A DNA stretch of 58,497 nt, taken from sequence record SRR22947727_2297. One strand, given 5' to 3'. Shown here in pieces: positions 7,064 through 53,955 of the stretch. The notes beneath the pieces are model-generated. The model made no database searches. It saw only the letters and a program-made list of their open reading frames with translations, and had not been told where the DNA came from. A program made the position numbers and the translations under genes. Numbering within the stretch: position 1 is the stretch's first letter; every line of letters starts with the position of its first letter.

Positions 7064-7106
7064 CGAACCAATAGGGTAAGTTCGATGAACTGACAGTATT
7101 AGATCG
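7064..7106. repeat. 21-bp palindromic repeat array (2 units)
   Basis: cgaaccaa-taggg-taagttcg a tgaactga-cagta-ttagatcg. Confidence 0.65.
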
Positions 7107-7183
7107 AAACGCTTGCATTTCCTGAAGTCTCACGCTAAAAATTCCGTCTTTGAAGTCCTCGGAACACTTACAAACCTGCTACT

Positions 7184-7726
7184 TTGGCGGCTGAGAGCAA
7201 AAACGAATCACCACACTTAATCGGGTATCGACTGCTGATTTTTGGCGTATTGATGGCGACGTGGTTTATATTTTCAGGTCTGAATGATGGTTTTCACCTT
7301 TCACTGGGCGTGATTTCCTGTGTGTTTGTCTCCTGGTTGTCCGCTGATTTGCTGTTTTCTGATCGAAGAATTGGAATTGCAGCCCGGATTGGCCAATTTT
7401 TTCGCATGTCTGGATACTTCGTTTGGCTGATGTGGCAGGTGGTGCTCTCGAATCTTCATTTGTTGAAGTTGGCTTTTCAAGGACCAACGGCGCTTTCACC
7501 TCAGATCATCCGCTACGAGACGACTTTGAAATCCGATTTCGAGAAATTCTTGCTCGCGAACTCGATCACGCTGACACCGGGAACTATTACGATGAAGATT
7601 CTCGGGAACACCTTTTACGTCCACGCCGTATCCGATTTCACGGCAAAAGGGCTCGATGGTGAAATGGAGCGCCGCATTTCAGCAATTTTTAATCCGCAAC
7701 CAAAGGGAGGGAAGTCCAATGGTTGA
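7184..7726 (+). CDS. mrpE: Mrp Na+/H+ antiporter subunit E
   Basis: LANSITLTPGT motif; first gene of the operon; TTG start. Confidence 0.92.
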   Translation: MAAESKNESPHLIGYRLLIFGVLMATWFIFSGLNDGFHLSLGVISCVFVSWLSADLLFSDRRIGIAARIGQFFRMSGYFVWLMWQVVLSNLHLLKLAFQGPTALSPQIIRYETTLKSDFEKFLLANSITLTPGTITMKILGNTFYVHAVSDFTAKGLDGEMERRISAIFNPQPKGGKSNG

Positions 7727-8033
7727 TTTCTTTAATGGGACGTTTTCCCACTTCGTTGGAGTTGCTCTCTTTTTGATGATGTTGCCGGCTTTGTGGCGTG
7801 TTTGGATCGGGCCGACTGCGATCGACCGGATTCTCGGGGTCAATGTGATTGGAACTAAGACGGCGGTGCTTCTCGTGATTATTGGATCGATTTTCAAGCA
7901 GGTTGAAATGTTCGTCGACTTTGCCTTGGCGTATGCGCTGCTGAACTTTATCGGGTCGATTGCTGCGTCTCGTTTCCTTCACAAAATGCCCGCTTCCGCC
8001 GGTAAACTCAACCGGGAGGAGGAAACCAAATAA
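7719..8033 (+). CDS. mrpF: Mrp antiporter subunit F
   Basis: GPTAIDRILG, DFALAYALLNFIG; start at ATG 7719 overlapping the end of mrpE. Confidence 0.9.
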   Translation: MVDFFNGTFSHFVGVALFLMMLPALWRVWIGPTAIDRILGVNVIGTKTAVLLVIIGSIFKQVEMFVDFALAYALLNFIGSIAASRFLHKMPASAGKLNREEETK

Positions 8034-8035
8034 TC

Positions 8036-8422
8036 ATGGAGAACGCGATTGTCATCATCAGTATGGTCCTGATTTGCTTTGGATTACTTTTCTTTCTCGG
8101 ATCAGCCGTGGGAATTCAGCGTTTCCCTGATTTTTATACCCGAATGCATGCTGCGGGTAAGGGCGACACGCTCTCCAGCTTGCTTGTAATTTTGGGCTTT
8201 GCCGTTTTTCAGATCCACGATCTTGAGTTTTCAGGAAAGTGGATTTCCGAAAACTGGGTAACGCTCTTGGTTATGCTCAAGTTGCTCGCCATTTGTGCTT
8301 TCATCATGATCACCAGCCCAACTTCGACGCATGCGTTGATGGATGCTGGTTGGGAGGACGGGATTGAGCCGGTATTGAAGAAAGACAAGCCGAACAACGC
8401 ATTGAAGGAGGACCAGGGATGA
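8036..8422 (+). CDS. mrpG: Mrp antiporter subunit G
   Basis: RFPDFYTRMHAAGKGDT and SPTSTHAL motifs. Confidence 0.93.
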   Translation: MENAIVIISMVLICFGLLFFLGSAVGIQRFPDFYTRMHAAGKGDTLSSLLVILGFAVFQIHDLEFSGKWISENWVTLLVMLKLLAICAFIMITSPTSTHALMDAGWEDGIEPVLKKDKPNNALKEDQG

Positions 8423-9487: not shown

Positions 9488-9970
9488 ATGCTTGAATTCA
9501 TCCAGGATAACATCCAGCCATATTTCAATTATTGGGTCTACGTGATCCTGATGATGATAGGATTGTGGGCTACGATTGCCAAAAACAATCTCATCAAAAA
9601 GCTGATCGGGATGTCGATTTTCCAAACAGCGATCATTCTTTTTTATGTGTCAGTCGGTGTGAAGGGCGAGGGATCGAAAATTCCTATCGTTAACCCCTAT
9701 ACTGAAGCTAAATCTGCCGAAGTGGTCGGTGCCGATCAGCACGGCGAGCATGGCGCAAAAGGCGGTGGTGAAAAATATATCGTCGAACCGGATAATTACG
9801 CCAATCCACTGCCGCACGTCCTTATGCTGACGGCTATTGTCGTTGGTGTTGCGACACTGGGCGTTGCTTTGGCTGTAGTTCAGATGCTTTTCAAAGAATT
9901 CGGAACGCTCGAAGAAGACGAAATTCTCGCGCAAATAAAAAACGCTGATTCAGCCTCCCCAGATGTCTGA
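9488..9970 (+). CDS. mrpC: Mrp antiporter subunit C
   Basis: NLIKKLIG and NPLPHVLMLTAIVV motifs. Confidence 0.93.
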   Translation: MLEFIQDNIQPYFNYWVYVILMMIGLWATIAKNNLIKKLIGMSIFQTAIILFYVSVGVKGEGSKIPIVNPYTEAKSAEVVGADQHGEHGAKGGGEKYIVEPDNYANPLPHVLMLTAIVVGVATLGVALAVVQMLFKEFGTLEEDEILAQIKNADSASPDV

Positions 9971-11552
9971 TCAATTTCCCATCCTCATTGTTTTAGCGCC
10001 GCTTTTTGGTGCAGTGATCATCGGGCTGGTTGGTTCGCGGGATCATCGCGTCTGCATGCCGGTCGTTTTGGTCGCGTTGTTCACGTCGCTTTCCGCAGTC
10101 ATTGGAACGCTGACCCAGGTTCTCGAAACAGGTCCTGTTGATTATTTTGTCGGCGGCTGGGAGCCGGGTAAAATGGCTCCAGGGATCCACGGTCCTGTCG
10201 AAATCGCCAAAGGATTCGGAATTCAACTGCGGGTCGATACGCTCAACGGATTTCTGTTGCTGGCCATCGCGATCGTCTCGATTTTTGTGTCGATTTTTTC
10301 CATTCGCCGCGTCAATCAAAAGGCGGCTTCAAAAACGCCTCAGTTTTATACGCTTTATTTGCTGCTCTGCGTTGGCTTGTTCGGAATGACGATCACGGGA
10401 GATGCGTTCAACTTGTTCGTTCTTGTCGAAGTTACGTCGCTGACCAGTTATGCGCTGATCGCGATGGGCAGCAAGCGGCGCGGCACAATGGCTGCGTTCA
10501 ACTACATCCTTATGGGAACGGTGGGGGCTTCGTTTTACCTTCTCGGTGTCGGCTATTTGTATCTCCAAACGGGATCGCTCAACATGGCGCACATTCAGGA
10601 AGTGCTGGCCGCGAATGATTTCGAGATCGGCCGATCCAAGCCGGTCATGGTGGCGTTTATCCTCATCATGGTTGGAATCTGGATCAAGATGGCCTTTTTC
10701 CCACTCTACGGCTGGCTTCCGAATGCCTACAGCTATTGCCCTTCGACGAGCAGCTGCATTTTAGCGCCGCTGATGACGAAGATTTCGGTCTATATCATGA
10801 TTCGGGTGATGCTGTCGGTTTTCGGATGGGAATGGATTTTCGTTGATCACGTTGGGTGGAGCGATGCCGTCGTTATTCTCGCGGTCATAGCAATTCTCGC
10901 CGGATCCACCCTGGCCTTGGCGCAGCGCGAATTGAAAAAAATGCTCTGCTATCTCATCGTCGCCGAAGTCGGTTACATGGTCGGCGGCGCATGGTTAGGT
11001 GATCCGGAGCGCTGGGGAATGTCCGGCGCGGCCTATCATATTTTGGCTGATGCGTTCATGACGCTTTGCTTGTTTCTCTGCGCTGGAATTTTTGCGAAGA
11101 AAGCCAACGCGACCCGAATCGAGCATCTTTCGGGAATGTTTAAGAAAATGCCTCTGACCATGACCGGATTTGTCGTGGGAGCCCTTGCCATGATCGGAAT
11201 CCCACCGACCTGCGGATTTTTCAGTAAATTCTATCTCATCCGTGGCGGCATCGAAGGCGGTCACTGGGAATTCGTTATCGCGCTGATCATCTCCAGCTTG
11301 GTGAACGTCGTGCTGTTCTTCCGGATTTTTGAAATCGCCTTTTTCGGAGCCAAACCGGCTGAAGGTCATGATCACGCACATCACGACGATGAGAAAGATG
11401 ATCATTCTACGAACGATGAACTAACCCTATTGGAACGTGAAGCACCGCTGCGCTCGTTGATTCCACTTTTCGGCACGACTGCTATCATCATTTTATTGGG
11501 TGTGTATAACGGACAAATCGTTGAGTGGATCCGCCTCACCATCAAGCCATGA
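9963..11552 (+). CDS. mrpD: Mrp subunit D-like proton-conducting membrane subunit (copy 1)
   Basis: TGDAFNLFVLVE, KMAFFPLYGWLPNAY, GIPPTCGFFSKF. Confidence 0.88.
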   Translation: MSDQFPILIVLAPLFGAVIIGLVGSRDHRVCMPVVLVALFTSLSAVIGTLTQVLETGPVDYFVGGWEPGKMAPGIHGPVEIAKGFGIQLRVDTLNGFLLLAIAIVSIFVSIFSIRRVNQKAASKTPQFYTLYLLLCVGLFGMTITGDAFNLFVLVEVTSLTSYALIAMGSKRRGTMAAFNYILMGTVGASFYLLGVGYLYLQTGSLNMAHIQEVLAANDFEIGRSKPVMVAFILIMVGIWIKMAFFPLYGWLPNAYSYCPSTSSCILAPLMTKISVYIMIRVMLSVFGWEWIFVDHVGWSDAVVILAVIAILAGSTLALAQRELKKMLCYLIVAEVGYMVGGAWLGDPERWGMSGAAYHILADAFMTLCLFLCAGIFAKKANATRIEHLSGMFKKMPLTMTGFVVGALAMIGIPPTCGFFSKFYLIRGGIEGGHWEFVIALIISSLVNVVLFFRIFEIAFFGAKPAEGHDHAHHDDEKDDHSTNDELTLLEREAPLRSLIPLFGTTAIIILLGVYNGQIVEWIRLTIKP

Positions 11553-18391: not shown

Positions 18392-18562
18392 AACAGGGAT
18401 AAGGTTGGTTTATCGAACCAAACCTATCTGATCGAAAAGCCGTTTCGATCGAACCCTGTTCGTTCGTTGAACAGACCCTGTTGATTCGTTTCAAAGGGGC
18501 CGCTTAGCTCCGGCCCTTCGCCCGGCAAGCTGAACTGGGCTCGATCCACCCGAGTTGATTCA
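18392..18562. repeat. 21-bp palindromic repeat array (4 units plus a further copy)
   Basis: Units at 18392 (degenerate), 18414, 18446 and 18468, plus 18542; e.g. cgatcgaa-ccctg-ttcgttcg t tgaacaga-ccctg-ttgattcg. Confidence 0.8.
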
Positions 18563-22411: not shown

Positions 22412-22509
22412 CGAAACAATCTCTTACAAAATGTAGAATTAATCCTTGCACTACTCCTAAAAAAACATATCAATCAATCAGGATTTGTTTATATGAATCT
22501 AAGTTGAAC

Positions 22510-24414
22510 ATGAAACTCACTTACAAACTAGTCCTCGCTGCGTCCTTCGCAGCGATTTCAATCGGCTACGCTCAAGAAGAAGACGCTGCTTTTGCAGATG
22601 CGCTCATTCTTGATGACGATAACATCGCGACACTCGACATCACGACAGTGGTGGCGACGAAGACTCCCAAAAACATCAATGATGTTCTGCCTTCTGTTGA
22701 TACCATCTCGGAGCAGCACATGTCATCGCATCAATTTCGTCAAGTCGATGACGTATTGAGCTATCTTCCCGGTGTCTCCGTGGTCCAAGCGGGTCAGACA
22801 GGGGGCGTGACTTCGCTTTTTGTGCGGGGTCAGGAATCCAACCATGTTGTAGTTACTCTAAACGGTCGTCGCCTTGCTCCCGGTTTGGCTGGCCTCTACA
22901 ATCTTGAGCTGATCGACACGACGTTTCTTGATTCCGTTCAGCTTCAGCGTGGTCCTGTAAGTTCGCTTTATGGCTCCGATGCGCTTGCGGGTGTTCTCGA
23001 TCTCCGTATGAAAGACGCTCGTAAGCTCCAGGGCACTTCACTGAATGCCTACACAGAGTCCGGAAGTTTTGATACCAATCGCAGCGGCGGTCAGATCACT
23101 GCAAAAGAAGGTGCGCTCGGCGTTGTTTTCGACATCAACAAAACTGAGACCTCAAATGACCGGCTTCAAAATGACTTCGAAAACGTGAACATCCGTTCAA
23201 ACGTCGCCCTGGAAATCGCCGACCGTACCTGGATCGATCTTCTTGCAACTTATCAGGATTCGGATCTGCAGGTTCCGGGATCAAGCCTCAGCACGTTTTT
23301 CCCTGAGTCACAGATCAACGAAAACGAGTCTTACCTTTTCTCTCCGCGCTTCACAATGGAGCGTGATGATTGGGATTTGTCTGCTTACTATAGCCACACC
23401 GCCAACGAGCTTGTTGCCACTCAGTCTGTGTTTTTGCAGGACAACGTTCTCGACCAGACTGGAAATGAAGTCGAAGCGCAGTTGAATATTCACCCAACCG
23501 ACGACGCAACTTTTACGCTCGGCGGTGGCTGGTATGAATATGAATTCGTTCGCGATCCATTGACCCCCGGACCGTTTAATACAGCATCAGAAAAAAAATT
23601 CTCTTACGGTAGCGTTTTTGCACAGGCTGACATTGATTTGCCAGCAAACTTCAATTTGCTCGCTTCAATTCGTCACGACGAGCACGACTCGTTCGAAAGC
23701 AAGTCGACGTATTCCGCTCAACTCATTAAAACAGTTGAAGCAACCAACACGCAATTTTTTGGGAAATACGCAACGGGCTACAAAGCCCCAAGCGGCCAGG
23801 ACTTCATTTTCCTCGACCCATCCGTTGATCCAAATTTAATCGCTCCAGAGGAAAGTGCTTCATGGGAAGCGGGAATTCGCCAGTTCTTTCCTGAGAACAC
23901 CGGAAACATCGCGGTGACTTACTTCAACGCAGACATTACCAACCTTGTAGATTCAATCGGCTTCCCGGCCTTCCCTGCAATTGTGGATACGGAGACTCAA
24001 GGCATCGAAGTTGAGGGCGTATTGACTCCAATCGACGGAGTTAAGCTGTATGCAAATTACACCTGGCTTGATGCAATTGTCAGCGACGGTCAATACTTCG
24101 GCGGATTCGCAGGTCAGCCTGGCGACACCCTTCCACGTCGCCCCGAGCACACCTTCGCTGCCGGTATCACACTCAGCCCGATTCAGAGCTGGGACATCGG
24201 CGCTGAAGTTCGCGGGGCAGACACCCGCCTTGATAACCCCGGCGTATTCCTGAACGACTATTCCGTTCTTCGGATCTTCACCAGTTATCGCCTCACCGAA
24301 AACATCGAGCTTTTCGGACGAGTTGAAAATGTTCTCGACGAAGATTACGAGAGCACGACGGGTTATGCAGCTCCAAGCACCGCAGCATTTGGCGGCGCAC
24401 GAATTCGGTTCTAG
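22510..24414 (+). CDS. TonB-dependent receptor, BtuB-like (probable cobalamin uptake)
   Basis: Plug motifs (LPGVSV, SLFVRGQESNHVVVTLNG, RGPVSSLYGSDALAGV), RVENVLDEDY, C-terminal Phe; adjacent to metH. Confidence 0.85.
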   Translation: MKLTYKLVLAASFAAISIGYAQEEDAAFADALILDDDNIATLDITTVVATKTPKNINDVLPSVDTISEQHMSSHQFRQVDDVLSYLPGVSVVQAGQTGGVTSLFVRGQESNHVVVTLNGRRLAPGLAGLYNLELIDTTFLDSVQLQRGPVSSLYGSDALAGVLDLRMKDARKLQGTSLNAYTESGSFDTNRSGGQITAKEGALGVVFDINKTETSNDRLQNDFENVNIRSNVALEIADRTWIDLLATYQDSDLQVPGSSLSTFFPESQINENESYLFSPRFTMERDDWDLSAYYSHTANELVATQSVFLQDNVLDQTGNEVEAQLNIHPTDDATFTLGGGWYEYEFVRDPLTPGPFNTASEKKFSYGSVFAQADIDLPANFNLLASIRHDEHDSFESKSTYSAQLIKTVEATNTQFFGKYATGYKAPSGQDFIFLDPSVDPNLIAPEESASWEAGIRQFFPENTGNIAVTYFNADITNLVDSIGFPAFPAIVDTETQGIEVEGVLTPIDGVKLYANYTWLDAIVSDGQYFGGFAGQPGDTLPRRPEHTFAAGITLSPIQSWDIGAEVRGADTRLDNPGVFLNDYSVLRIFTSYRLTENIELFGRVENVLDEDYESTTGYAAPSTAAFGGARIRF

Positions 24415-24427: not shown

Positions 24428-24472
24428 CGATCAAACAGGTTCTGATCGCTGTTTACGGACCCTGTTACTTCG
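24428..24472. repeat. 21-bp palindromic repeat array (2 units, the second degenerate and offset)
   Basis: cgatcaaa-caggt-tctgatcg ... ttacgga-ccctg-ttacttcg. Confidence 0.55.
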
Positions 24473-28452: not shown

Positions 28453-28863
28453 ATGAAACTCGCAAATAACACAATGGTCATCGCAATTTTGACGGCTCTT
28501 CTATTCTCCTGCGCTGAAAGTGGCACGAAATCCACCGATACTCCTTCTGAATTAGCTACCATCTCGGTGGACATCTTTAATCCACCGAAAGGTTTGAAGG
28601 TCATCACTGGACTCGAAGTTCCTGAAAACTCAAAGGAACCGGTTGCCATTTTTTTTGAAAACCCTTCTCCTTCATCGAACGAATTAGGAATCGATTGGGC
28701 GGTAATAGGAAAGCTAAGCATTGCCAATTCCTCTGGAGTTCGAGAACTTCAACTGTTCAATGGCAACGATGTAGTTCTTTTTACTGAGAACGGGGCGTGG
28801 TACGAAGCAGGCAAATTGGAGGACTTTGTAACCCTCATAAGTGAAATGATTTCGAAGAAGTAA
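28453..28863 (+). CDS. Putative lipoprotein
   Basis: Signal peptide with lipobox-like LFSC. Confidence 0.65.
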   Translation: MKLANNTMVIAILTALLFSCAESGTKSTDTPSELATISVDIFNPPKGLKVITGLEVPENSKEPVAIFFENPSPSSNELGIDWAVIGKLSIANSSGVRELQLFNGNDVVLFTENGAWYEAGKLEDFVTLISEMISKK

Positions 28864-28912: not shown

Positions 28913-28955
28913 TGATCAATCAGGGTACATTCGATGAATCAACCGTGTTGGGGCG
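28913..28955. repeat. 21-bp palindromic repeat array (2 units)
   Basis: tgatcaat-caggg-tacattcg a tgaatcaa-ccgtg-ttggggcg between convergent genes. Confidence 0.55.
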
Positions 28956-29752: not shown

Positions 29753-29756
29753 CAGA

Positions 29757-30263
29757 TCAGGAATTTTCCTCAGGTGGTTGAGGAAGCAAGTCTTCACGAT
29801 TGAGAAGCCCTGGAATATCAAGCCCGGCCAATTCGGCACCTTCGGTCGTCAGAATCATCGACAGTATCGGTGCAATTCGATCCATTTCCGAAACAGTCGT
29901 GTGAACGAGGCCTTTGATAATCTCAGGATTGCCTTGTGGAGTGGGGAAGAGGTTCGTTGCCCTAAAAACCAGGACCCCCAATTCCCAACGCATTTCAAAA
30001 TTTCCAACGGTCAGCATCTCGTTGCAACGCATCGCCAGTTCAGCCAAGCGCTCGCGACGAGCCGGTTCTTTGGTTCCGGTTGAATATTCGGAAACAACGG
30101 AAATGGCGCTCAACTCAGGGAATGCCTGAATGTGCATGTTCACCCGGGTATGATGGGCTTCAAACCCGACCTGAATGACTTCGTGGCCTTCGACTTCGGC
30201 GTACTGCCATTTTTCAGCGGTGAAGGTGTTGCAGATCGTTTGATAGAGTTCGGATGGAGGCAT
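29757..30263 (-). CDS. YbjN-like domain protein
   Basis: RLAELAMRCNEMLTVGNFEM pattern; start at ATG 30263. Confidence 0.6.
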   Translation of the reverse strand: MPPSELYQTICNTFTAEKWQYAEVEGHEVIQVGFEAHHTRVNMHIQAFPELSAISVVSEYSTGTKEPARRERLAELAMRCNEMLTVGNFEMRWELGVLVFRATNLFPTPQGNPEIIKGLVHTTVSEMDRIAPILSMILTTEGAELAGLDIPGLLNREDLLPQPPEENS

Positions 30264-37616: not shown

Positions 37617-37712
37617 CGAATCAACAGGGTCTGTTCGTCGATCGAACCCTGTTGGATCGAAATGGTCCCCGATCCAATAGGGTTGGTTAATCAATCAGAT
37701 ACTGTCTGATCG
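37617..37712. repeat. 21-bp palindromic repeat array (4 units: pair, 10-nt spacer, pair)
   Basis: cgaatcaa-caggg-tctgttcg t cgatcgaa-ccctg-ttggatcg N10 cgatccaa-taggg-ttggttaa t caatcaga-tactg-tctgatcg. Confidence 0.85.
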
Positions 37713-39131
37713 TGAAATCAACTTCGAGTCCATCACCAACAACGGCTTGCGATGGCGTTTGCTGGTCGCTGCATTCACAGGCTTGTGAAGCTCAAATACA
37801 TACCCTTCGCTCGTGAGAATGAAAATCTCTCCGCCGGGGCCGGGACGAATCGCATTGACGGATGCCATCAGCGGTTCTTCATCGGAATCTTTCGCTATGT
37901 TGGGATCGCTGATCAGTTTGAGCCCACCAGCAGATTCATCAGGCTGAGCTTTCGCAGCGAGAAGCCGACCGGTTGTGGTCGCAACGATGATTTTTCCTGC
38001 CAAAATCGGGAAACGCTCACCACGATAAACGAAACCACCAACGACTTTATCGGATTTCCGACCAAACTCGACGTGGGGGGCGGTGACGCCTTCTGTTGGG
38101 CGGCTGCCTTCGCTAGGTGGGAAAAAGAACGAGCCTTCGCATAAATCCCATCCGAAATGCTCGCCGCCATATCCGCTGATATTGACCTCTTCAAGATTTT
38201 CTTTGCCGGTGTCGCCAATGCACAGCCACTCGCGAAACGGATCGAACTGCAGACCATGAGGAGCGCGAAGCCCATAGCACCAGATTTCAGGAATCGCGCT
38301 GTCGATCACGGCGAGGGGATTCCGCTTTGGCAATCCGTATTGACCGTTTTTGGAATTGTCTCCCAGAGGATCGATCCGCAAAACCTTCCCGTAGGGGTTT
38401 GAAAGCGACATCGCATTTCGAGAAGGTGAATTTTTCCCGATTTTAGATTCTGCACCGTCGCCAATGGCGACAAACAGGTTTCCGCGGTGATCAAAGGCAA
38501 GCCCCGCCATATTGTGTTCAATCCCGGGCTGGCTGAGACGAAGCATTTCTCGGCGCTCGCCTTCAAATGTAACCGCGCCTGGCGTTGTTGTTTTGAATTC
38601 CACGAGAACGTCCTGATGATGTTCACTGGAAACCGCAAACTCAGGGCGGAAATCAACCTCACCGGCACCTGCTTTCTCCGGAATGATTGCATAAAAACGA
38701 CCGAATCCTTTGGACTCTTCGTTCAAATACGCGGGATGAAATATAAGCGCCGTAAACGGAATTGCTTCATCGGTTTTCTCATTCGCGAGGTCGAAATACT
38801 CCGTGGTTTCATTGGCGTCTGAATCCGGATTTTCCACGGTCGGAGCGATTCGGGTAATTTTCCCACTTTCATCCAGGAGATAACCCGTTCCTGCATGATC
38901 GAAGGCAAGGTCCACAGGATTTTCTGACTGCGCAAAAAGAACGGTCGCGGCTTCCAATTCGCGGTCCCGAATGATCGGAATCGGGTTGTTCGATGACACT
39001 CCGTGAGAGCTCGCAATCTCGTGGTCGGTTGGGAAAAATGAAGTGACCAGTAAATAGCTTGCTGCTCCCAGAATCGCCCAGAGGCAAAAAAGGCCAACAA
39101 ATCTAAAAGTATTAATGAGAGATCGAAACAT
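37695..39131 (-). CDS. Glucose/sorbosone (PQQ-type) dehydrogenase-like beta-propeller
   Basis: HNMAGLAFD, GKVLRIDP, EIWCYGLRAP, GDTG...EEVN, FGW, VVGGFVYRG. Confidence 0.85.
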   Translation of the reverse strand: MFRSLINTFRFVGLFCLWAILGAASYLLVTSFFPTDHEIASSHGVSSNNPIPIIRDRELEAATVLFAQSENPVDLAFDHAGTGYLLDESGKITRIAPTVENPDSDANETTEYFDLANEKTDEAIPFTALIFHPAYLNEESKGFGRFYAIIPEKAGAGEVDFRPEFAVSSEHHQDVLVEFKTTTPGAVTFEGERREMLRLSQPGIEHNMAGLAFDHRGNLFVAIGDGAESKIGKNSPSRNAMSLSNPYGKVLRIDPLGDNSKNGQYGLPKRNPLAVIDSAIPEIWCYGLRAPHGLQFDPFREWLCIGDTGKENLEEVNISGYGGEHFGWDLCEGSFFFPPSEGSRPTEGVTAPHVEFGRKSDKVVGGFVYRGERFPILAGKIIVATTTGRLLAAKAQPDESAGGLKLISDPNIAKDSDEEPLMASVNAIRPGPGGEIFILTSEGYVFELHKPVNAATSKRHRKPLLVMDSKLISRSDSI

Positions 39132-41844: not shown

Positions 41845-44742
41845 TCAATGAGCATCCAGCCAGTTCTCACCGGTGCCGGTTTCCACCAAAATAGGGACTT
41901 TCAACGGCAGGGATGATTTCATGCACTCGACAACAAGCGGTGTCACTTCAGCTTCTTCATCCCGTCGCATGTCGAAGACCAATTCATCGTGAACCTGCAA
42001 CAGCATTCGTGTTTTGAAGCCGCCGTCGTCAAGAGCACGGGCCACACGGGTCATCGCGATTTTGATCATATCTGCCGCAGTGCCTTGAATCGGGGTGTTC
42101 ACTGCAATCCGCTCCGAGGCGCTTTTCATCATGAAGCTTCGTGAATTGATGTCGCGCAGATAACGCCGGCGATGCGTGATCGTCTCGACATAACCGTTTT
42201 TCTGAGCCGCTTCGATCGTTGATTCCTGAAACTCTTTTACCTTCGGATACTGCTTAAAATATTCCTCGATGATTTCGCCAGCCTCCGATCGTGAAACTTC
42301 GCCTCCAAGCCGTTGGGCCAAACCGAAGGCCGAGATGCCGTAGATGATTCCAAAGTTCACCATCTTCGCTTTTCTCCGCATTGATGACTCCACCGCGTCC
42401 AATTCCACTCCAAAAACCCGCGCGGCAGTTGCCTGGTGAATATCCACACCGGTTTCAAAGGCTTCCATCATCGCAGGATCTTCGCAAAGCGATGCCATGA
42501 CGCGTAACTCGATTTGAGAATAGTCGGCCGCCATCAAAATATGATCGGCATCGCGCGGCACAAACGCCTTTCGAATTTCTCGCCCCTGTTCCGTCCGAAT
42601 CGGGATGTTTTGCAAATTCGGATCGTTCGAGGCCAATCGTCCTGTCGCCGTCATCAGCTGATGAAACGTGGTGTGAATCCGGCCGGTTTTCGGAAAAATT
42701 GAATTCGGCAACGCATCGACATAGGTGCTCTTTAATTTCGAGGCCTCTCGAAAGGCCAGTAAATCCCGCACGATTTGGTGCTCCACCGACAATCCCGAAA
42801 GCGTTTGCTCATCAGTTTTGTATTGGCCGGTTTTGGTTTTCTTCGGCTTCTCGACCAGTTTCAATTTATCGAACAAAATCTCTCCAACTTGCTTCGGCGA
42901 CGCGACATTGAATTCTTCGCCCGCCGCGTCGTAGACCTTTTGCTCCATTAGCTTGATGTTTTTGCCGAGGACTTCGCCGATCTCCGATAATATATCAGTA
43001 TCGACGCGAATTCCTTCCGCCTCCATCGCAACAAGAACCGGCGTCAGGGGTGATTCCACGCCGAAGAACAAGGCTTCCTGACCAAACTCCTTCAGCTTCT
43101 CGCGCAAAATTTCCGCCAGCTGCCAGGCCACATCTGCATCTTCCGCTGCATATTCGGCGATGTTCACAAAAGCAGGCCCCATTGGCGCTTCGGGCTCGGG
43201 TTCTGCTTCCAGCACCAATTCGCCGAACATATCGAGTTGCCCCGCTTTGGGATCATTCGCTTCGCCATCCTTGGCTTTTTCTTTTTCTGCGGGCTGGTCT
43301 TTTGCAAACACGTCCTCGTATTTGATCGGCGTGTATCCTAAATACTGCTCCGACAGGTAATCCATTTTATGCCGCAGATCCGGCTCCACCAAGGTGTGCG
43401 CCAACATGGTGTCGAAGAGCTGGCCATCGATCTTCAATCCATTCCAATGCAACACACCGACATCGAACTTTAGATTGTGGCCGATTTTTTCCGTGAACGG
43501 ATCAGTCAAAACAGGCCGCAGTTCTTCTAAGATTGCCTTGGCTCCCGCTTCATCGCCGGGAAAGCCGATGTAGATTCCCGTGTTGGCCTTCCATGAAAAT
43601 GCGACGCCGATGATGTTCGCGACTTTTTCGTCCAGTCCATCGGTTTCCAGATCGAAGCAAAAAGACTGCTGGTCTCCGATTTTTTGGATCGCCTCAGCAC
43701 GCCCTTTCGCATCGTCCGGCGGAAAATATTCGTATGACTTCCTAACGTCCTGAATCGTTTTCAGCTCAGCGAAATTCGATTGCTCCCCTTTCAGCGAGCC
43801 GTCCGCTTGCTTCACCGTTTTGTGACCTCGGCCTGCCTGGAAATCATTACCAAACAAGCGTTTACCGAGCTGATTGAACTCCCACTCGACAAACAAATCC
43901 TTCAGCGCCCCGTCGTCGCGGGGCGTGATTTCGAGCTCTTCGAACGTCACGTCGACCGGCGCATCGAGCATGATCTTGACCAATTTTTTCGACAGCAAGG
44001 CTTGCTCCACATTATTCTCCACGTTCTCTTTCTGCTTACCTTTCAGTTTGTCGGTGTTTTCCAAAAGCCCCTCGACACTGCCGTAGAGCGCCATCAACTT
44101 TTTCGCGGTCTTCTCGCCAATCCCCGGCACCCCCGGAATGTTGTCCGACGCATCTCCCCACAGTCCCAAAATATCCACGACCTGTTCAGGAGTCTCGACC
44201 TCCCATTTCTTTTTGATCGCTTCCACGTCGAGAATCTCAAAATCACCGCCCCGCATTCCCGGTTTGTAAATCTTGATCCGATCCGTCACCAGCTGAGCAA
44301 AATCTTTATCCGGCGTGACCATGAAGATCTCGAAATTTTCATCTTCCTTTTCCGCCCGCTGCGCCAGCGTTCCGATCGTGTCATCCGCCTCCCAGCCAGG
44401 GCACTCAATCACCGGAATGTTGAAAGCTCGAATCAGGCGTTTCACCTCCGGGATTTGCAACGCCAGATCCTCCGGCATGGCATCTCGATTCGCTTTGTAT
44501 TCGGGATACATCTCATGCCGCGGAGTTGGCTCCGAAGTATCAAACGCGACAGCGAGGTGAGTTGGCGCCTGCTTGTCCATCAATTCGAGCAGCGTATTAG
44601 CAAAGCCAAAAACGCCGGATGCGTTGAATCCGCCCGAGGTAAAGATCGGCGATCGAATCAGCCCAAAATGCGCCCGATACATGAGCGCCATGCCATCGAG
44701 AAGAAAGAGCCGTTTGGGAGATGAGGTTTCAGAATCCGCCAT
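41845..44742 (-). CDS. polA: DNA polymerase I
   Basis: 5' nuclease (LLDG, EADD, GDASDNIPGVPGIGEKTA), 3'-5' exonuclease (FDLET, HNLKFD, YAAEDA), polymerase (DYSQIELR, KMVNFGIIYG, QVHDEL). Confidence 0.99.
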   Translation of the reverse strand: MADSETSSPKRLFLLDGMALMYRAHFGLIRSPIFTSGGFNASGVFGFANTLLELMDKQAPTHLAVAFDTSEPTPRHEMYPEYKANRDAMPEDLALQIPEVKRLIRAFNIPVIECPGWEADDTIGTLAQRAEKEDENFEIFMVTPDKDFAQLVTDRIKIYKPGMRGGDFEILDVEAIKKKWEVETPEQVVDILGLWGDASDNIPGVPGIGEKTAKKLMALYGSVEGLLENTDKLKGKQKENVENNVEQALLSKKLVKIMLDAPVDVTFEELEITPRDDGALKDLFVEWEFNQLGKRLFGNDFQAGRGHKTVKQADGSLKGEQSNFAELKTIQDVRKSYEYFPPDDAKGRAEAIQKIGDQQSFCFDLETDGLDEKVANIIGVAFSWKANTGIYIGFPGDEAGAKAILEELRPVLTDPFTEKIGHNLKFDVGVLHWNGLKIDGQLFDTMLAHTLVEPDLRHKMDYLSEQYLGYTPIKYEDVFAKDQPAEKEKAKDGEANDPKAGQLDMFGELVLEAEPEPEAPMGPAFVNIAEYAAEDADVAWQLAEILREKLKEFGQEALFFGVESPLTPVLVAMEAEGIRVDTDILSEIGEVLGKNIKLMEQKVYDAAGEEFNVASPKQVGEILFDKLKLVEKPKKTKTGQYKTDEQTLSGLSVEHQIVRDLLAFREASKLKSTYVDALPNSIFPKTGRIHTTFHQLMTATGRLASNDPNLQNIPIRTEQGREIRKAFVPRDADHILMAADYSQIELRVMASLCEDPAMMEAFETGVDIHQATAARVFGVELDAVESSMRRKAKMVNFGIIYGISAFGLAQRLGGEVSRSEAGEIIEEYFKQYPKVKEFQESTIEAAQKNGYVETITHRRRYLRDINSRSFMMKSASERIAVNTPIQGTAADMIKIAMTRVARALDDGGFKTRMLLQVHDELVFDMRRDEEAEVTPLVVECMKSSLPLKVPILVETGTGENWLDAH

Positions 44743-44866: not shown

Positions 44867-44909
44867 TGATCTGGCAGAGTTGGTTCGTTGATTCAATAGG
44901 GGCAGTTCG
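44867..44909. repeat. 21-bp palindromic repeat array (2 units)
   Basis: tgatctgg-cagag-ttggttcg t tgattcaa-taggg-gcagttcg. Confidence 0.6.
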
Positions 44910-44926: not shown

Positions 44927-46306
44927 TCACTTCGCCGCGCTTGATTGATATTTGGAGACGAAAATGTCGTTCCCCTTTTTTGCGGTCAGCGACGTCGCGC
45001 CAAATTGCGTTTCGTTTCGAAAAGCGCCGGAAATCACCACTCCGCCGTCGGAAGTCGCAGCGATCGCGTAGCTGAGATCATGATCTTTTCCCCCTGCAAG
45101 AATAAACGATTTCACGACGCTGCCGTCAGGCGAAAGCTCCAGAATGTAAGCGTCCCGTTCACCGGTGGTTGTGAATTTCTTACCGTTGAAATTCGCTGCT
45201 TTCGTTATTTCGCCTGTGATCACAAATCCACCGCCGTTCGGCAACGCAGCTGAACCAAGCGCGTAATCTGTTTCCAACCCGCCGCCATGATGCGCGTTCA
45301 AAACGTCGCCGTCGGAAGAATAAACGGCTACGAAAAAATCATTCCCACCGTGCGATGTGAATTCGGAATCACCAAATCGGGCGGTGCCTTTGAACATTCC
45401 GGACAGACAAATATTTCCGGTTTTTTCATCTACAGAAACTCCCGTCGACGCGCCATTTGATTCGCCTCCCGCTTGTTTCACCCACTGGAACTCGCCATTC
45501 GCGTTGTATTTTGCAAGGCCGATGTCTTGAATTTTGCTGGTGGTAGAAACGGTATCCGACCAGTCAATTTTTCCGCGTCCAAAAGCGGCCAGATAAATCA
45601 ATCCATCGCTGCCGACCGTCACATTGTGGCCGCTGATTCCCGGTCCAGTCGCAGCCGCCGACCAAATCATTTCACCGTCAGGAGAAAATTTCGCGACCAC
45701 TGCGGAACGCGATTTCTCCCGCCCGATCACCTTTCCACCAATGTCGCCCAGATTCGCGATCGTTCCCGAAACCACGACATTTCCATCCGACCCCGTGGAA
45801 ATTCCATGGCCAAAATCGTAGTTTTCTCCGCCAAACCGCTGTGCCCAGAGGCATTTTCCTGATTCATTAAATCGAGCAATGAACCCATCGTAGTCTCCGC
45901 TATTTGTGAGCTTCACGTCTCCGAACCTGATCGTTTCGCTTTGAAAATGACCTGTTACGAAACAACCGCCATCCTCATCCGGTGAAACCGCATAGCCGCG
46001 ATCAATTTCCGCGCCACCCGTTCGCACCGCCCAAATGACTTCGCCAGCTTGATCAATTTTCGCGAGCACGAAATCGAGACTGCCGGCGGACTTCAACATA
46101 TGAGGCCCGAAATCAGTTTCGCCCGTGATTTCTCCGGTCACAAATACACCGCCATTTGCGGCTGCACAGGCTCCTCTGATTTTGTCATTCCCTTCGCCAC
46201 CTGCGCGGAAAGACCACTGAAATGAACCAGCGTCTTGTGAGAATAGATTTCCCGCCGTCACAAAAGCGAAGGCGAGAGCGAGATAGCTGAAGATCGAAAT
46301 TTTCAT
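44927..46306 (-). CDS. Secreted beta-propeller repeat protein (SBBP-like)
   Basis: Repeated VxxTG...G..DxF(V/I)AK...G...W units; signal peptide. Confidence 0.85.
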   Translation of the reverse strand: MKISIFSYLALAFAFVTAGNLFSQDAGSFQWSFRAGGEGNDKIRGACAAANGGVFVTGEITGETDFGPHMLKSAGSLDFVLAKIDQAGEVIWAVRTGGAEIDRGYAVSPDEDGGCFVTGHFQSETIRFGDVKLTNSGDYDGFIARFNESGKCLWAQRFGGENYDFGHGISTGSDGNVVVSGTIANLGDIGGKVIGREKSRSAVVAKFSPDGEMIWSAAATGPGISGHNVTVGSDGLIYLAAFGRGKIDWSDTVSTTSKIQDIGLAKYNANGEFQWVKQAGGESNGASTGVSVDEKTGNICLSGMFKGTARFGDSEFTSHGGNDFFVAVYSSDGDVLNAHHGGGLETDYALGSAALPNGGGFVITGEITKAANFNGKKFTTTGERDAYILELSPDGSVVKSFILAGGKDHDLSYAIAATSDGGVVISGAFRNETQFGATSLTAKKGNDIFVSKYQSSAAK

Positions 46307-48322: not shown

Positions 48323-49063
48323 ATGTTCAAACGCATTGGCAATCTCATCCGCGGCTTTTTCGGTCTTTTTGTAACTGGTCTCGAAAAACAAAATCCTGAA
48401 GCACTTCTCAATGTTGAAAAGGAAAACCTGAGAAAACAAATTTCTGAGTATAACAAAGGTCTTGCTGCTCACGCAGGCCTTTGTGAGCGCCTAATTTCGC
48501 AGGTCGAAAAAGAGCGTCGCGAGTCGAAAGAATTAACCGCAAAAACCTCCGCTCACCTCAAGGCCGGTAACCGTAAACTCGCCGGTGAATACGCGCTTAA
48601 ACTTCAAAAAGTGAAGGATGACCATGCTTCCAATGTTGAGCAGATGGAAGCGGCGGAAAAAACTTATGAGGAATTAAAGCGTTCCCGCGACATCGCAGTG
48701 AAAGCTGCTCGCGACAAAATTGAATCGCTCAAGCGCAATATTTCAGAAACCAAAATCGCCAAAGCTACCGCTGAGCTCAATGAAATGGCTGCCGGGATGA
48801 TCAATGAAATCGGCGGTGCAGGCGATACCTTGAATCGCCTTGAAGAAATGGTTCGCGAGGAGAAAGAAGAAGCCAAAGGCCGCGCTCGCGTTGCTAAAGA
48901 CAGCATCGACACAACCGACCTCGTTGAAATGGAAGCTGAGCGTTCTGCTCTCGAAGAAATGGCGTTGGCTGATTTCGCCGCCGAATCCGGAATCGTGATG
49001 GAAGGTGACGGCGATGGTGGAGAAACCGAAGCTCCCGCTGCTGAAGACGAGAAAACCATGTGA
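48323..49063 (+). CDS. PspA/IM30 family protein
   Basis: MFKRIGNLIRG amphipathic N-terminus, ExxNPEALL, long coiled coil. Confidence 0.85.
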   Translation: MFKRIGNLIRGFFGLFVTGLEKQNPEALLNVEKENLRKQISEYNKGLAAHAGLCERLISQVEKERRESKELTAKTSAHLKAGNRKLAGEYALKLQKVKDDHASNVEQMEAAEKTYEELKRSRDIAVKAARDKIESLKRNISETKIAKATAELNEMAAGMINEIGGAGDTLNRLEEMVREEKEEAKGRARVAKDSIDTTDLVEMEAERSALEEMALADFAAESGIVMEGDGDGGETEAPAAEDEKTM

Positions 49064-49075
49064 TTTCCGTTTTCA

Positions 49076-49150
49076 CGATCCAACAGGGCTGGTTCGTTGA
49101 ATCAACCCTGTTCAATCGAAACACTGAATCGATCCAATACTGTTGGATCG
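49076..49150. repeat. 21-bp palindromic repeat array (3 units); the last unit doubles as a terminator hairpin
   Basis: cgatccaa-caggg-ctggttcg t tgaatcaa-ccctg-ttcaatcg N11 cgatccaa-tactg-ttggatcg followed by cTTTTTTTT. Confidence 0.85.
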
Positions 49151-49179
49151 CTTTTTTTTGTGTCCGTAGATCCAAGGTT

Positions 49180-51152: not shown

Positions 51153-52481
51153 TCAAACCAAATCAAATTTCCCGTCGCTGTCACCAAGTTGTTCGGCGCT
51201 GACTCCGGCTTTTTCGAGTAGCGACAGATACAAATTTGTCATGGGAACGGGTTGTTTAGTTTTTACATGACGCCCTGGATTGAGCTTTCCATTCGCTTTT
51301 CCTGCGAGGACTACTGGAAGATTGTCGTGATCATGACGGTCCGCATCGCTGATTCCACCGCCGAAAACGATCATCGATTGATCCAGCAAACTCTGCCCGG
51401 CCGGGTCTTTCGCTGCTTTCATTTTCTCGAGAAAATACGCAAACTGCTCGACGTAAAACCGATCAATCTTCGCGATCTTTTCCATTTTTTTGGCATCGCG
51501 CCGGTGGTGGGAAAGATGATGATGACCATCGGGAACCCCGATTTCTCGGAAGCTGCGATTGGATCCATCATGAGCGACAAGAAAACTCGCAATCCGGGTC
51601 GTATCGCTTTGAAACGCCAGCACCATCATGTCGTACATGATGCGGATGTGATCTCTATAAGTGCCGGGAATTCCCTTCGGCGCCGTTGCATTCGGCATTG
51701 CTGCGCGAAATTTTTCCGCATTTTCAATCTTCCGTTCCATTTCGCGAACGCCGGTCAGATATTCTTCAATTTTCTGTTGGTCGGTGTAACCCAGTTTTTT
51801 CTGAAGCGATTTGGCATCCTCCATCACATAGTCAAGCAGACTGCTCTGATGAGAAAGTCGGCGGGCCTGTTCTTTCGGATCGATACTGGCTTTGTCGCTA
51901 CCGAACAGTTTTTCAAAAACAAGCCGGGGATCAATTTCCGGTGGAAGCGGAAGTGTTTCGCTGCGCCATGAAAAATTAAACTGATAAGCGCAACTGTAAC
52001 CGGAATCACAACGACCCGCTTTTCGAGCCGGATCACACCCCAGCTGAAGCGAATCGATTTTCGTCTCACTCCCAATTTGGGCAGCTGCGATCTGATCCAC
52101 AGAAACGCCAAGTTTGATATCAGCCCCGGCAGTTTTACGAGCCTGCGCTCCGGTCAGGAAAGTAGCAGTCGCACGAGCATGATCCCCGCCCCCATCTCCA
52201 TTTGCATCTGCTTTATCGTGAGCCAGCCCTGAAATAACTTGCAGCTCGTTCTTTACATTTTTCAGCGATGAAAGCGTTGGCGACAATTTCCAATCGGCTC
52301 CTGCACCGCTCGGCGTCCACTCGGGCATGATTGCTCCATTTGGCGTATAAACATAGGCCATCCGAAGCGGAGCGGCGGCATCGCCTCCTTTCGCAAAAAC
52401 ACTCGAACCTTCCAAGGTTGGCAGCGCAATAGTTGCGCCCAAACCACGGAGAAAACGGCGACGTGAGGCGGATGAATTCAT
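51153..52481 (-). CDS. DUF1552 (HXXSHH) family protein
   Basis: Tat-like SRRRFLRG, CDSGYSCAY, HHHLSHH motif, HDHDNLP. Confidence 0.92.
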   Translation of the reverse strand: MNSSASRRRFLRGLGATIALPTLEGSSVFAKGGDAAAPLRMAYVYTPNGAIMPEWTPSGAGADWKLSPTLSSLKNVKNELQVISGLAHDKADANGDGGGDHARATATFLTGAQARKTAGADIKLGVSVDQIAAAQIGSETKIDSLQLGCDPARKAGRCDSGYSCAYQFNFSWRSETLPLPPEIDPRLVFEKLFGSDKASIDPKEQARRLSHQSSLLDYVMEDAKSLQKKLGYTDQQKIEEYLTGVREMERKIENAEKFRAAMPNATAPKGIPGTYRDHIRIMYDMMVLAFQSDTTRIASFLVAHDGSNRSFREIGVPDGHHHLSHHRRDAKKMEKIAKIDRFYVEQFAYFLEKMKAAKDPAGQSLLDQSMIVFGGGISDADRHDHDNLPVVLAGKANGKLNPGRHVKTKQPVPMTNLYLSLLEKAGVSAEQLGDSDGKFDLV

Positions 52482-52555
52482 GAATTTACAAACTCAAACT
52501 AAACTCCGGCCGTCCCGCAACAAGTGGCTCATTCGGGTACGCAGAAATTAGCTTC

Positions 52556-53155
52556 TTAGCCAATTTTTGAAACAAGGTCGATCTGTTCCATCTTTTCCAT
52601 GAGCACTTCAAAGTCATCGGAAGCTACCAGATTCGAGGCATGATCCGCATTTAAAAATCCGCCACCGACCATATTCTCATCGAGAAATTGAATCAGCGAA
52701 TCGTAATAGCCTGCGACGTTGAGAACGCCATTCGGCTTTGGTTTTTGGCCGTGAAGATCAAGCAATCCCCACGTCACCATTTCGAAAAGTTCATCCATCG
52801 TTCCCATGCCACCCGGCAAAGAAACGAACGCGTCTGACAAATCAGCCATGCGAGTCTTCCGCTCCAGCATGGTCTCGACAACGTCCAGCTGCGTCAGGCC
52901 TCGGTGCCCCACTTCACGATCCAAAAGCTTTGCGGTGATCACGCCGATGATTTTTCCGCCAGCTTCCAGACACGCGTCCGCTAGCTCTCCCATCAAGCCA
53001 ACACTCCCGCCTCCATAAACAATTTGGATGTCACGACTGGCCAAATATTTCGCAAATGCACGAGTTTGCTCAACAAATGTGGGATCGTTTCCTGATTGAG
53101 AGCCACAGAAAACGCAAAGGGATTTGATTTCGTTTTTAGCCGACATGTCTTTCAC
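52556..53155 (-). CDS. LOG family (TIGR00730) nucleotide phosphoribohydrolase
   Basis: VFCGS, VYGGGSVGLMG, MLERK, LPGGMGTMDELFE; GTGA overlap with the pirin stop. Confidence 0.93.
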   Translation of the reverse strand: MKDMSAKNEIKSLCVFCGSQSGNDPTFVEQTRAFAKYLASRDIQIVYGGGSVGLMGELADACLEAGGKIIGVITAKLLDREVGHRGLTQLDVVETMLERKTRMADLSDAFVSLPGGMGTMDELFEMVTWGLLDLHGQKPKPNGVLNVAGYYDSLIQFLDENMVGGGFLNADHASNLVASDDFEVLMEKMEQIDLVSKIG

Positions 53156-53868
53156 AGTTCGATTGCAATGAATTTACTTTTCTCTTTTGCCGCTACCGAA
53201 AAACCACTCTCCGAGCTCACTGCGGCGCCATCCCCCGAAAGGAGAAACTCCTGATTGCTGCCCAATTCCAAATCGCCGTCGATAACTTGAATCCAAAAAT
53301 TCAGCCCTCCAAGCTCCGGTTTCACAACGCACGACTGATTTGCATCGAGTTCACCGAGCCAAATCGTCACATCCTGCCGCACCATGAGTGAATCATCCCG
53401 ACCGTTATTGCTGGCTAAAAGAGTCAATCCATCTTCGGAGTGTCTTTGGCGGGGATCCATTTCAGCATAAATCGGAGTTCCTCCCGGCTGATCCGGTTCA
53501 ATCCAAAATTGCAAAAAATGAACCGGTTCCGACTTTGAAGCATTGACCTCACTGTGCATCACACCTGAAGCAGCGCTCATGTATTGAAACTCCCCCTCAT
53601 TGACCTTCCGCCGGTTACCCAAACTATCCTCATGCTGAAGCGCTCCGCTGATGACGTAGGAAAATATCTCCATAGAATGATGAGGGTGCATTCCAAATCC
53701 AGACCCTGCGGAAACTGTGTCTTCATTCATGATTCGCAAGGCGGAAAATCCGATATATTCCGGATCATAAAAGTCCCCGAACGAAAACGAATGCTTGCTC
53801 TCCAGCCAATCGAAACGGGTGTGGCCGCGCGCTTCAGATGGGCGCTTGATGATTGAAATTTCGGACAT
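53152..53868 (-). CDS. Pirin family protein (YhhW-like)
   Basis: RGHTRFDWLESKHSFSF, GFGMHPH, HEDSLGN, MSAASGVMHSE; start at ATG 53868. Confidence 0.93.
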   Translation of the reverse strand: MSEISIIKRPSEARGHTRFDWLESKHSFSFGDFYDPEYIGFSALRIMNEDTVSAGSGFGMHPHHSMEIFSYVISGALQHEDSLGNRRKVNEGEFQYMSAASGVMHSEVNASKSEPVHFLQFWIEPDQPGGTPIYAEMDPRQRHSEDGLTLLASNNGRDDSLMVRQDVTIWLGELDANQSCVVKPELGGLNFWIQVIDGDLELGSNQEFLLSGDGAAVSSESGFSVAAKEKSKFIAIEL

Positions 53869-53890
53869 ATCAGCTGCGGAATGACTGCTA

Positions 53891-53955
53891 CGAGTCAACA
53901 GGGTGCGCTCGACGAACCAACAGGGTTTGATCGTCGAATCAACTCGGAACTCGTT
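53891..53955. repeat. 21-bp palindromic repeat array (3 units, the third degenerate)
   Basis: cgagtcaa-caggg-tgcgctcg a cgaaccaa-caggg-tttgatcg t cgaatcaa-ctcgg... Confidence 0.75.

Follow-up and report, generated by a model that had tools for sequence, protein, structure and literature searches.

A dense family of paired 21-bp palindromic repeats, apparently old and vertically inherited, in uncultured Verrucomicrobiales

Sequence SRR22947727_2297, a stretch of 58,497 nucleotides (nt) analyzed at its full length and referred to here as the window, carries a short palindromic element in arrays at eight or more places between positions 7,064 and 53,955, and it raises the question of what kind of element this is and how its copies are maintained. 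The original prediction, made from the letters alone, proposed either phased binding sites for a dimeric DNA-binding protein or an undescribed family resembling repetitive extragenic palindromic (REP) elements and bacterial interspersed mosaic elements (BIMEs), rather than recent transposon scars. Our analysis supports the undescribed REP/BIME-like family. We consider it probable that the arrays are a non-autonomous repeat of the REP, BIME or REPIN (REP doublet forming hairpin) type that spread in the ancestor of its clade and is now inherited vertically, its consensus being kept by a duplex-binding host factor or by copy-to-copy correction. Rfam at gathering thresholds matched no family in the entire window, and no description of the repeat family was found in Rfam or in the searched literature on palindromic repeats of the Verrucomicrobia and Verrucomicrobiales.

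The window belongs to genome G000 (5.97 Mb in 229 contigs, 51% G+C, 95.6% complete). With the consensus of the original prediction as the search pattern, allowing up to two mismatches, we identified 25 strand matches in the window, against 2.07 expected from 100 shuffles (standard deviation 1.56, maximum 7), none of which reached 25. The same pattern matches 1,529 positions in G000 and 30 in a block-shuffled copy of it, this shuffled control being a single replicate. A position weight matrix trained on the pattern matches gives, at a cut-off of at least 12 bits, 4,158 strand matches in G000 and 49 in the shuffled copy; those in G000 resolve into 2,159 non-overlapping units, 21 of them in the window. 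The unit has the 21-bp consensus CGAWCMAA-YAGGG-TTKGWTCG, with 8-bp arms and a 5-nt loop. Its core had been described as varying between CAGGG, TAGGG and CAGTA/TACTG; it is not free, as YAGGG or its complement fills 551 of 678 near-consensus sites and CAGTA/TACTG is rare.

Distances of up to 120 bp between neighboring units number 1,108, and nearly all take one of two values: exactly 22 bp in 897 cases and exactly 32 bp in 174, leaving 37 others. The strong enrichment over the shuffled genome is thus joined by a sharp spacing peak, and the proposed 22-bp period and pair, linker, pair grammar are real. The units form 1,060 arrays: 568 doublets, 291 singles, 127 four-unit arrays, 73 triplets and one array of five units, the maximum. 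The 21-bp palindrome had been taken as the element itself. It is a real unit, but alone it is a weak predicted hairpin (-3.3 kcal/mol versus -1.85 when shuffled), and the structural module is a 43-bp head-to-head doublet of two 21-bp quasi-palindromes 1 nt apart (54.6 bits). Head-to-head doublets have a mean predicted folding energy of -19.3 kcal/mol, versus -8.4 when shuffled, and 320 of 343 form one long predicted hairpin. Many doublets are doubled to 97 bp through an 11-nt linker with the weak consensus AAAnGGCnTTT, and the resulting 22-32-22 spacing is found in 118 of the 127 four-unit arrays. The spacer had been given as 10 or 11 nt; 10 nt is correct for the array at 37.6 kb in the window, and 11 nt is the norm in the genome.

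Orientation could be classified in 533 doublets, of which 343 are head to head (YAGGG then CCCTR), 181 have both loops in the same orientation and 9 are tail to tail, counts that fit an independent loop flip of about 0.19 per unit. Pairs at the 22-bp spacing comprise 568 plus-minus, 313 same-orientation and 16 minus-plus cases; those at 32 bp comprise 88 minus-plus, 85 same-orientation and one plus-minus. Outer arm ends are C/G in 94-96% of copies and inner ends are C or T and G or A. These arm features follow position in the doublet and not loop orientation, indicating that the loop flips inside fixed arms. The center of the doublet is usually asymmetric, with ATC or its complement GAT at positions 21-23 in 463 of 897 doublets; ATC, GAT, GAC and GTC together account for 634 of 897, and each completes a TCGA at the center. 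The flanks are weakly conserved (50-68%), with TTTYA on one side and TRAAA on the other.

How widely the family is distributed was assessed with the doublet core, which, searched against 185,579 species genomes, gave at least 80 loci, from ten assemblies among the matches listed; all of these loci are in uncultured Verrucomicrobiales metagenome-assembled genomes. The strict unit occurs at hundreds of copies in three genomes of the genus of the window and in one genome of another genus. A relaxed pattern of the core with 15-nt spacing (AAYAGGGT-N15-ACCCTRTT), with G000 left out of the family count, gave the following matches.

Same family, all genera: match in 46 of 85 genomes
Genus g1: both searched genomes match, 243-265 sites per genome
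Genus g2: 37 of 40 genomes, 1-91 sites per genome
Genus g18: 5 of 5 genomes, 27-383 sites per genome
Genus g7: 2 of 2 genomes, 3-6 sites per genome
Genus g15: 1 of 2 genomes, 1 site
Genera g5, g6, g12, g23, g34 and g40: no match in the genomes searched
Other families of the order: 2 of 215 genomes, 1 site each
Reversed control pattern: 0 everywhere

The arms read CGAWCCAA in g1, CGACCCAA in g18 and TGACYYAA in g2. Judged by these matches, the repeats are limited to one Verrucomicrobiales family and, within it, to a few genera that differ in their arm sequences.

The age of the arrays was addressed with 1.18 Mb of one congener, G001, at a mean protein identity of 72%. Among 241 gene junctions conserved between the two genomes, 13 have arrays in both, 5 in G000 only, 2 in G001 only and 221 in neither (Fisher p = 8e-16 for shared positions). 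In the alignments the arrays have the same orientation class in the same place, and are thus truly orthologous. Sequence identities differ between orthologous and unrelated copies as follows.

Orthologous doublets (n=8): consensus positions 0.84, variable positions 0.63, 20-nt flanks 0.38-0.39
Unrelated copies: consensus positions 0.85, variable positions 0.43-0.51, 20-nt flanks 0.26

The motif is therefore held at the equilibrium of the family while its surroundings are nearly randomized. On this comparative evidence, the repeat family is old and passed on vertically. There is also no master copy in G000: 24 copies are the most that any 21-mer of the family reaches, and none of the top repeated 43-mers belongs to it. 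Positions common to species at 72% protein identity, together with the lack of a master copy, agree with the original view that these are not recent transposon scars. With G019, from another genus, only 38 junctions are conserved, of which one has a shared array and four have arrays in G000 only. Arrays occur at 18 of the 241 junctions conserved with G001, compared with about one gap in five overall, and may thus be enriched at breaks of synteny.

All eight arrays predicted in the window are present in the sequence at their predicted positions. They are listed here with two further single units; none is assigned a strand.

7064..7106: doublet, units 7064-7084 and 7086-7106 (26.3 and 19.0 bits), between open reading frames (ORFs) 6110..7048 (-) and 7184..7726 (+)
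11417..11437: single unit within ORF 9963..11552 (+), 18.7 bits, a pattern match with 2 mismatches
18392..18488: four-unit array of doublet, 11-nt linker and doublet; the units at 18414, 18446 and 18468 score 20.0, 27.8 and 26.8 bits, and the first (18392-18412) is degenerate, below 12 bits
18542..18562: weak lone unit, 16.2 bits, 54 nt past the 18392..18488 array
24428..24472: unit 24428-24448 (18.4 bits) and a degenerate partner at offset 24, not 22 (below 12 bits)
28913..28955: diverged doublet (14.8 and 14.5 bits) between convergent ORFs 28453..28863 (+) and 28967..29839 (-)
37617..37712: four-unit array with a 10-nt linker, units at 37617, 37639, 37670 and 37692 (28.4, 28.4, 21.5 and 16.5 bits)
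44867..44909: diverged doublet (13.8 and 16.1 bits) between a polA-like gene (Pfam), 41845..44742 (-), and 44927..46306 (-)
49076..49150: three-unit array of doublet, 11-nt linker and single unit (25.8, 24.6 and 28.0 bits)
53891..53955: same-orientation doublet at 53891 and 53913 (16.4 and 30.1 bits) and a degenerate third unit at 53935, below 12 bits

Several of these arrays adjoin recognizable genes. The 24428 array starts 14 nt past the stop of a TonB-dependent receptor gene (22504..24414; Pfam) and the 49076 array 13 nt past that of a PspA/IM30 gene, 48323..49063 (+). The 37617 array lies between the co-directional genes 37695..39131 (-) and 36097..37494 (-), with its last unit overlapping the upstream gene at the end given by the longest ORF. 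The 53891 array is in a divergent region between a pirin gene and 53997..54599 (+); the pirin domain begins at residue 60 of the longest ORF, so the array is probably upstream of the true start. In a near-identical strain from another metagenome the 37617 array is unchanged. Two further observations concern relatives of the window. The genes flanking the 37617 array (window 37494-37695) sit on separate contigs, C21 and C8, in G001. G001 and G002 each have a doublet shortly past their orthologue of the window gene ending at 41688, and the matrix finds none in the corresponding gap of the window, 41688-41845.

Gene positions across G000 come from a crude in-house caller that ranks the longest ORFs by a codon-usage score (4,598 genes, 88% coding), and the position counts that follow are therefore approximate. 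Outside the ORF calls, which cover 88% of the genome, lie the whole of 1,500 of the 2,159 units; arrays make up 0.85% of the genome and occupy about one intergenic gap in five. In gaps of at least 60 bp, they are found in 140 of 365 convergent, 376 of 1,341 tandem and 139 of 603 divergent cases. Measured from an array, a facing stop codon is at a median of 17-18 nt and a start at 58-68 nt; of 785 facing stops, 370 are 0-20 nt away, with a broad peak at 2-22 nt. Some ORFs terminate at the loop TAG or at the TGA of a TGAAC arm, and gene callers will be confused by reading frames that run into the repeats and end there. Same-orientation doublets are weakly associated with local GC skew (139 versus 94). 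The intergenic location given in the original prediction holds for most copies but not for all, as illustrated by the unit at 11417 and by 124 arrays deep in long ORFs.

This placement behind genes would suit doublets that act in RNA, as 3'-end hairpins that stabilize or end transcripts, a role proposed for many REPs. Such a role would also agree with convergent gaps being the richest in arrays and with the low predicted folding energy of head-to-head doublets. Contigs from two RNA libraries cross two arrays of the window: one covers 37513-37791, across the 37617 array, without any difference, and another covers 48328-49219 but lacks 27 nt (window 49098-49124) in the 49076 array. DNA contigs keep these 27 nt, and the gap may represent strain-level length variation inside an array. 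As the RNA evidence consists only of such contigs, in which DNA carry-over is possible, they give a hint of read-through transcription and no more. Many short RNA-library contigs that touch arrays alone derive from other copies of the repeat.

Other features argue against selection on RNA. The run of T typical of intrinsic terminators is not found, the 3' flank being TRAAA. A terminator scan of window positions 24000-40000 flagged no array and did flag a separate site at 24472-24510, a terminator-like hairpin of 11 pairs with a T run immediately after the 24428 array, implying that termination at this locus is not due to the array. In one third of doublets the loops face the same way and cannot pair, and a 3'-end role is impossible in the divergent gaps that hold arrays. 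The stems show no compensatory change, since the Watson-Crick fraction at each position equals the expectation for independent columns. For co-directional gene pairs, the sense strand is not enriched in G:U (192 G:U versus 229 A:C), and the antisense strand folds slightly better than the sense strand. An RNA-selected hairpin is thus not supported, and we regard a primary role of the doublets as 3'-end hairpins as very unlikely.

The three central mirror pairs of the doublet are less complementary than expected (0.23 versus 0.32, 0.18 versus 0.31 and 0.33 versus 0.52), which looks like avoidance of a perfect long palindrome. A preference for heterodimers has been described for CGTC-tagged REPs in the available text of Di Nocera et al. 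(2013, PMC3733652). A periodogram of how conservation varies along the doublet shows power at a period of 10.5-11 bp (permutation fraction 0.0045) as well as at 6 and 8 bp. Taken together, the structure tests speak less for a selected RNA hairpin than for duplex DNA being recognized, or for structure not being under selection at all.

Recognition of duplex DNA would be the whole explanation if the arrays were phased sites for a lineage-specific dimeric or tetrameric protein, such as a nucleoid organizer or global regulator acting at gene boundaries, and were kept by selection for binding. Stems without compensatory change, central mirror positions less complementary than chance and conserved blocks that recur at 10.5-11 bp would all fit, and spacings of 22 and 32 bp, roughly two and three turns of the helix, would keep the units in helical phase. 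Orthologous sites keep their consensus positions among randomized flanks, arms specific to each genus are expected if the reader protein co-evolves, and arrays are present in divergent gaps. On the other side, no candidate protein was found, the periodogram power is not confined to the helical period, and 19% of loops are inverted in unchanged arms, which a sequence-specific reader of the loop should not easily tolerate. Moreover, it is hard to see how about 1,060 sites, each with 54.6 bits and many placed in frame in genes, could arise without copying, so that selection for binding explains maintenance and not origin. We therefore consider binding sites alone an unlikely account, although the strongest of the alternatives to a spread repeat.

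Many arms contain GATC or TCGA, from which modulation by methylation had been suggested. Although GATC is present in 799 and TCGA in 1,134 of the 2,159 units, this idea finds no support: both tetramers are over-represented genome-wide (observed/expected 1.8 and 2.1), only 2-3% of their sites are in arrays, and a Dam-type methylase (PF02086) was not found in the 95.6%-complete G000. More generally, GATC, TCGA and AATT are over-represented 1.8- to 2.2-fold in this genome. GTAC is nearly missing (2,140 sites, observed/expected 0.09, with 165 of the sites in the 0.85% of the genome made up of arrays), and its scarcity suggests a restriction system aimed at GTAC. By k-mer count, G000 also contains a second, younger and unrelated repeat, rich in G+C, with at least 14 identical 43-mers, which tops the lists of repeated 21-, 25- and 43-mers.

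Copies inside genes bear on how the repeat enters new sites. Among the 234 arrays within called ORFs, 91 lie at most 150 nt from the 5' end of the ORF and probably reflect over-extended starts. The 124 arrays deep in long ORFs comprise 62 singles, 54 doublets, one triplet and seven four-unit arrays, and the 62 with at least two units are in frame. The doublets use frames 0, 1 and 2 in 12, 29 and 13 cases, and the preferred frame encodes T[NI]QQG[LT]FDEPTLLDR. Host genes identified with Pfam include an Hsp70 paralogue, a class A penicillin-binding protein, an OGG glycosylase and a squalene/phytoene synthase, and the units are also present at the DNA level in 9 of 12 orthologues in G001 or G019. 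When the penicillin-binding protein is compared with solved structures, the alignment breaks in the doublet region.

Around the site in the Hsp70 paralogue, 12 orthologues align without gaps: 16 element-coded residues in G000 and G002 occupy the place of a native 14 (16 in one case) in nine other genera. The paralogue in G001 is a shorter version without units. The same codons carry a same-orientation doublet in G000 and a head-to-head doublet in G002, so that the loop of one unit is inverted in place between these species. The squalene/phytoene synthase has 15 element-coded residues, against 13-20 in orthologues, and the native segments of both proteins share G-[LV]...[DE]-P..L with the element peptide. 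Thus, in these two enzymes, an in-frame doublet replaces a native segment instead of adding 15 residues. Such length-neutral copies could come from replacement, by conversion or template switching, or from insertion and deletion filtered by selection.

These cases raise the alternative that the repeat spreads by templated replacement, either through a molecular drive like that proposed for uptake signals, namely the DNA uptake sequences (DUS) and uptake signal sequences (USS), or through hairpin-templated strand switching or conversion between copies. Beyond the near length-neutral sites, flanked without gaps in the Hsp70 paralogue, and the loop inverted at the same codons, it would be compatible with genus-specific arms, with positions conserved between species, and with neither a transposase nor a target duplication being found in the scans made. 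However, the core 8-mer is rarely alone, as 1,335 of its 1,509 copies are inside full units, and the 174 outside are fewer than the roughly 364 that simple arithmetic predicts at equal base use. The DNA of the native Hsp70 segment in the nearest outgroup shares about 31% identity with the doublet (hand count), which makes gradual convergence implausible. The four-unit array in the OGG glycosylase adds about 22-26 residues, and exact 1-nt and 11-nt linkers at about 1,000 loci resemble the copying of a composite element. We regard spread by such replacement as the least probable of the explanations considered. In a related but broader proposal, the module does not move, or has ceased to move, through insertion by cutting or copying. 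Instead, stretches of similar length, even in essential genes, would be replaced from a template, the frame-1 peptide would mimic a common native G-L...E-P..L loop, and a lineage-specific protein that reads the helically phased duplex would keep the consensus. This proposal is also improbable, and we place it between the binding-site and RNA-hairpin explanations; if true, it would show a novel means by which repeats can last with no transposase.

The search for an enzyme that could have mobilized the repeat weighs against our preferred reading of a non-autonomous REP-type repeat. As claimed in the original prediction, there is no REP-associated tyrosine transposase (RAYT) in the window. The sole Y1_Tnp match in G000 (L001:1365-2028, contig G000:C171) is broken by an internal TAA and is bracketed by its own 48-nt (88% complementary) and 25-nt inverted repeats, which are unrelated to the units; similar inverted repeats flank a broken Y1_Tnp gene in G019 (L018). 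Y1_Tnp (PF01797), searched for in G000 and nine relatives, is common in relatives with and without the element, with 63 matches in an element-free genome and one in G002. We scanned 25 Y1_Tnp loci in nine genomes, eight of which carry the element and account for 21 of the loci; at none do units occur on both sides, although all assemblies are fragmented metagenome bins from which a flanked gene may have been lost. A one-sided exception is found at L018:2206-2314 (G019:C20), where a variant unit with a CCCRG core is present in five 22-bp copies, arranged head to tail and starting about 370 bp downstream of the Y1_Tnp gene, which is broken by TAG; this is the only Y1_Tnp locus with unit-like sequence nearby. 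Three GIY-YIG matches were identified in G000; the scan covered the two small genes, which have no units in their loci, and left out the third match, in a 539-residue frame. Arrays flank 44 genes on both sides in G000, and a Pfam search of 20 of them, leaving out the remaining 24, which are mostly long, assigned 15 to ordinary metabolic families and 5 to no family. The array flanks contain neither a target-site duplication nor co-varying sequence, and no pair of empty and filled sites with clean breakpoints was recovered. These results weigh against the preferred reading, as do the stem, G:U and antisense-strand tests and the two replaced enzyme segments; the single shuffled genome and the approximate gene positions described above are limits of the analysis.

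We nevertheless consider the spread of a non-autonomous REP-type repeat the best account of the evidence. On this account, non-autonomous copies would have multiplied in an ancestor common to a few marine Verrucomicrobiales genera, by means of an enzyme lost or yet to be found, with vertical inheritance since. Copies would persist where they do little harm, mostly 2-22 nt behind stops and also in promoter-side gaps and in frame in genes. We attribute the upkeep of their consensus amid randomized neighboring DNA to a probable role at the DNA level, as helically phased, protein-bound sites at gene boundaries, by analogy with BIMEs; those of E. coli are bound by gyrase, IHF and Pol I. Alternatively, template switching or conversion may let copies correct one another, and the inversion of loops in place would then be accounted for too.

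REP-type repeats are known mainly from Proteobacteria, and their persistence is currently explained by a partner RAYT transposase. Here, a very dense family occurs in an uncultured marine Verrucomicrobiales clade that is present in metagenomes of ten studies, and species that share 72% protein identity retain its consensus at the same loci, with no RAYT found. The family therefore allows host upkeep through a binding protein to be tested against copy-to-copy correction alone. The near length-neutral copies in the Hsp70 paralogue and the squalene/phytoene synthase are concrete cases of a repeat entering a gene without breaking it, and the family as a whole is a strong marker of its clade.

Among known systems, the repeat can be compared with REPs (also called palindromic units, PU) and BIMEs of Escherichia coli and other enterobacteria, with which it shares short imperfect palindromes in hundreds to thousands of copies, few units per array, a location mostly downstream of genes, and alternating units whose fixed linkers are set by the facing ends (here 1 nt head to head and 11 nt tail to tail). 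It differs in its shorter, 21-bp unit, which alone is a weak hairpin, in the lack of a GTAG tag (neither GTAG nor CGTC appears in the flank logos), in arrays of at most five units and in the occupation of nearly a quarter of divergent gaps. As in REPIN-RAYT systems, to the extent covered by the available text of Bertels and Rainey (2011, PMC3116915), the module is an inverted doublet that folds as one long hairpin, and the populations are long-lived and vertically inherited. Unlike REPINs, the family has no RAYT flanked by repeats at the 25 Y1_Tnp loci and no dominant master sequence, and each half of its doublet is itself a palindrome. The repeat also resembles the CGTC-tagged REPs which, in the portion of Di Nocera et al. 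(2013, PMC3733652) available to us, have a stem of 8-9 bp and a loop of 4-5 nt (8 bp and 5 nt here), predominantly head-to-head dimers, a preference for heterodimers, no dedicated transposase and some intragenic copies. The CGTC tag, the A/T first two stem pairs and the CCA tail given in the same portion of that paper are missing here, the unit ends CGA...TCG being both paired and flanked by A and T; same-orientation dimers, a substantial class in our doublets (181 of 533), are negligible among the repeats described there. For Verrucomicrobia, that portion lists GTAG repeats alone (Opitutus terrae). In build and in behavior the family resembles the REP, BIME and REPIN class. With no tag, no flanked RAYT and no master copy, it falls outside the tagged REP superfamilies and REPIN-RAYT systems as these are defined.

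Rickettsia palindromic elements (RPE) are found in frame in protein-coding genes and are translated in functional proteins; they are longer and add residues. Copies of the present family are likewise translated in frame inside genes with clear Pfam domains, but its two well-aligned cases are nearly length-neutral replacements and most of its copies are intergenic. The DUS and USS of Neisseriaceae and Pasteurellaceae occur in thousands of copies on both strands, with inverted pairs behind genes, genus-specific variants, preferred reading frames and conserved positions. The repeat described here resembles them in all of these respects, and differs from them in that its core is almost never alone, where theirs is a short motif standing by itself at high copy and in good part in coding DNA, and in that its motif is a 43-bp structured doublet with exact linkers.

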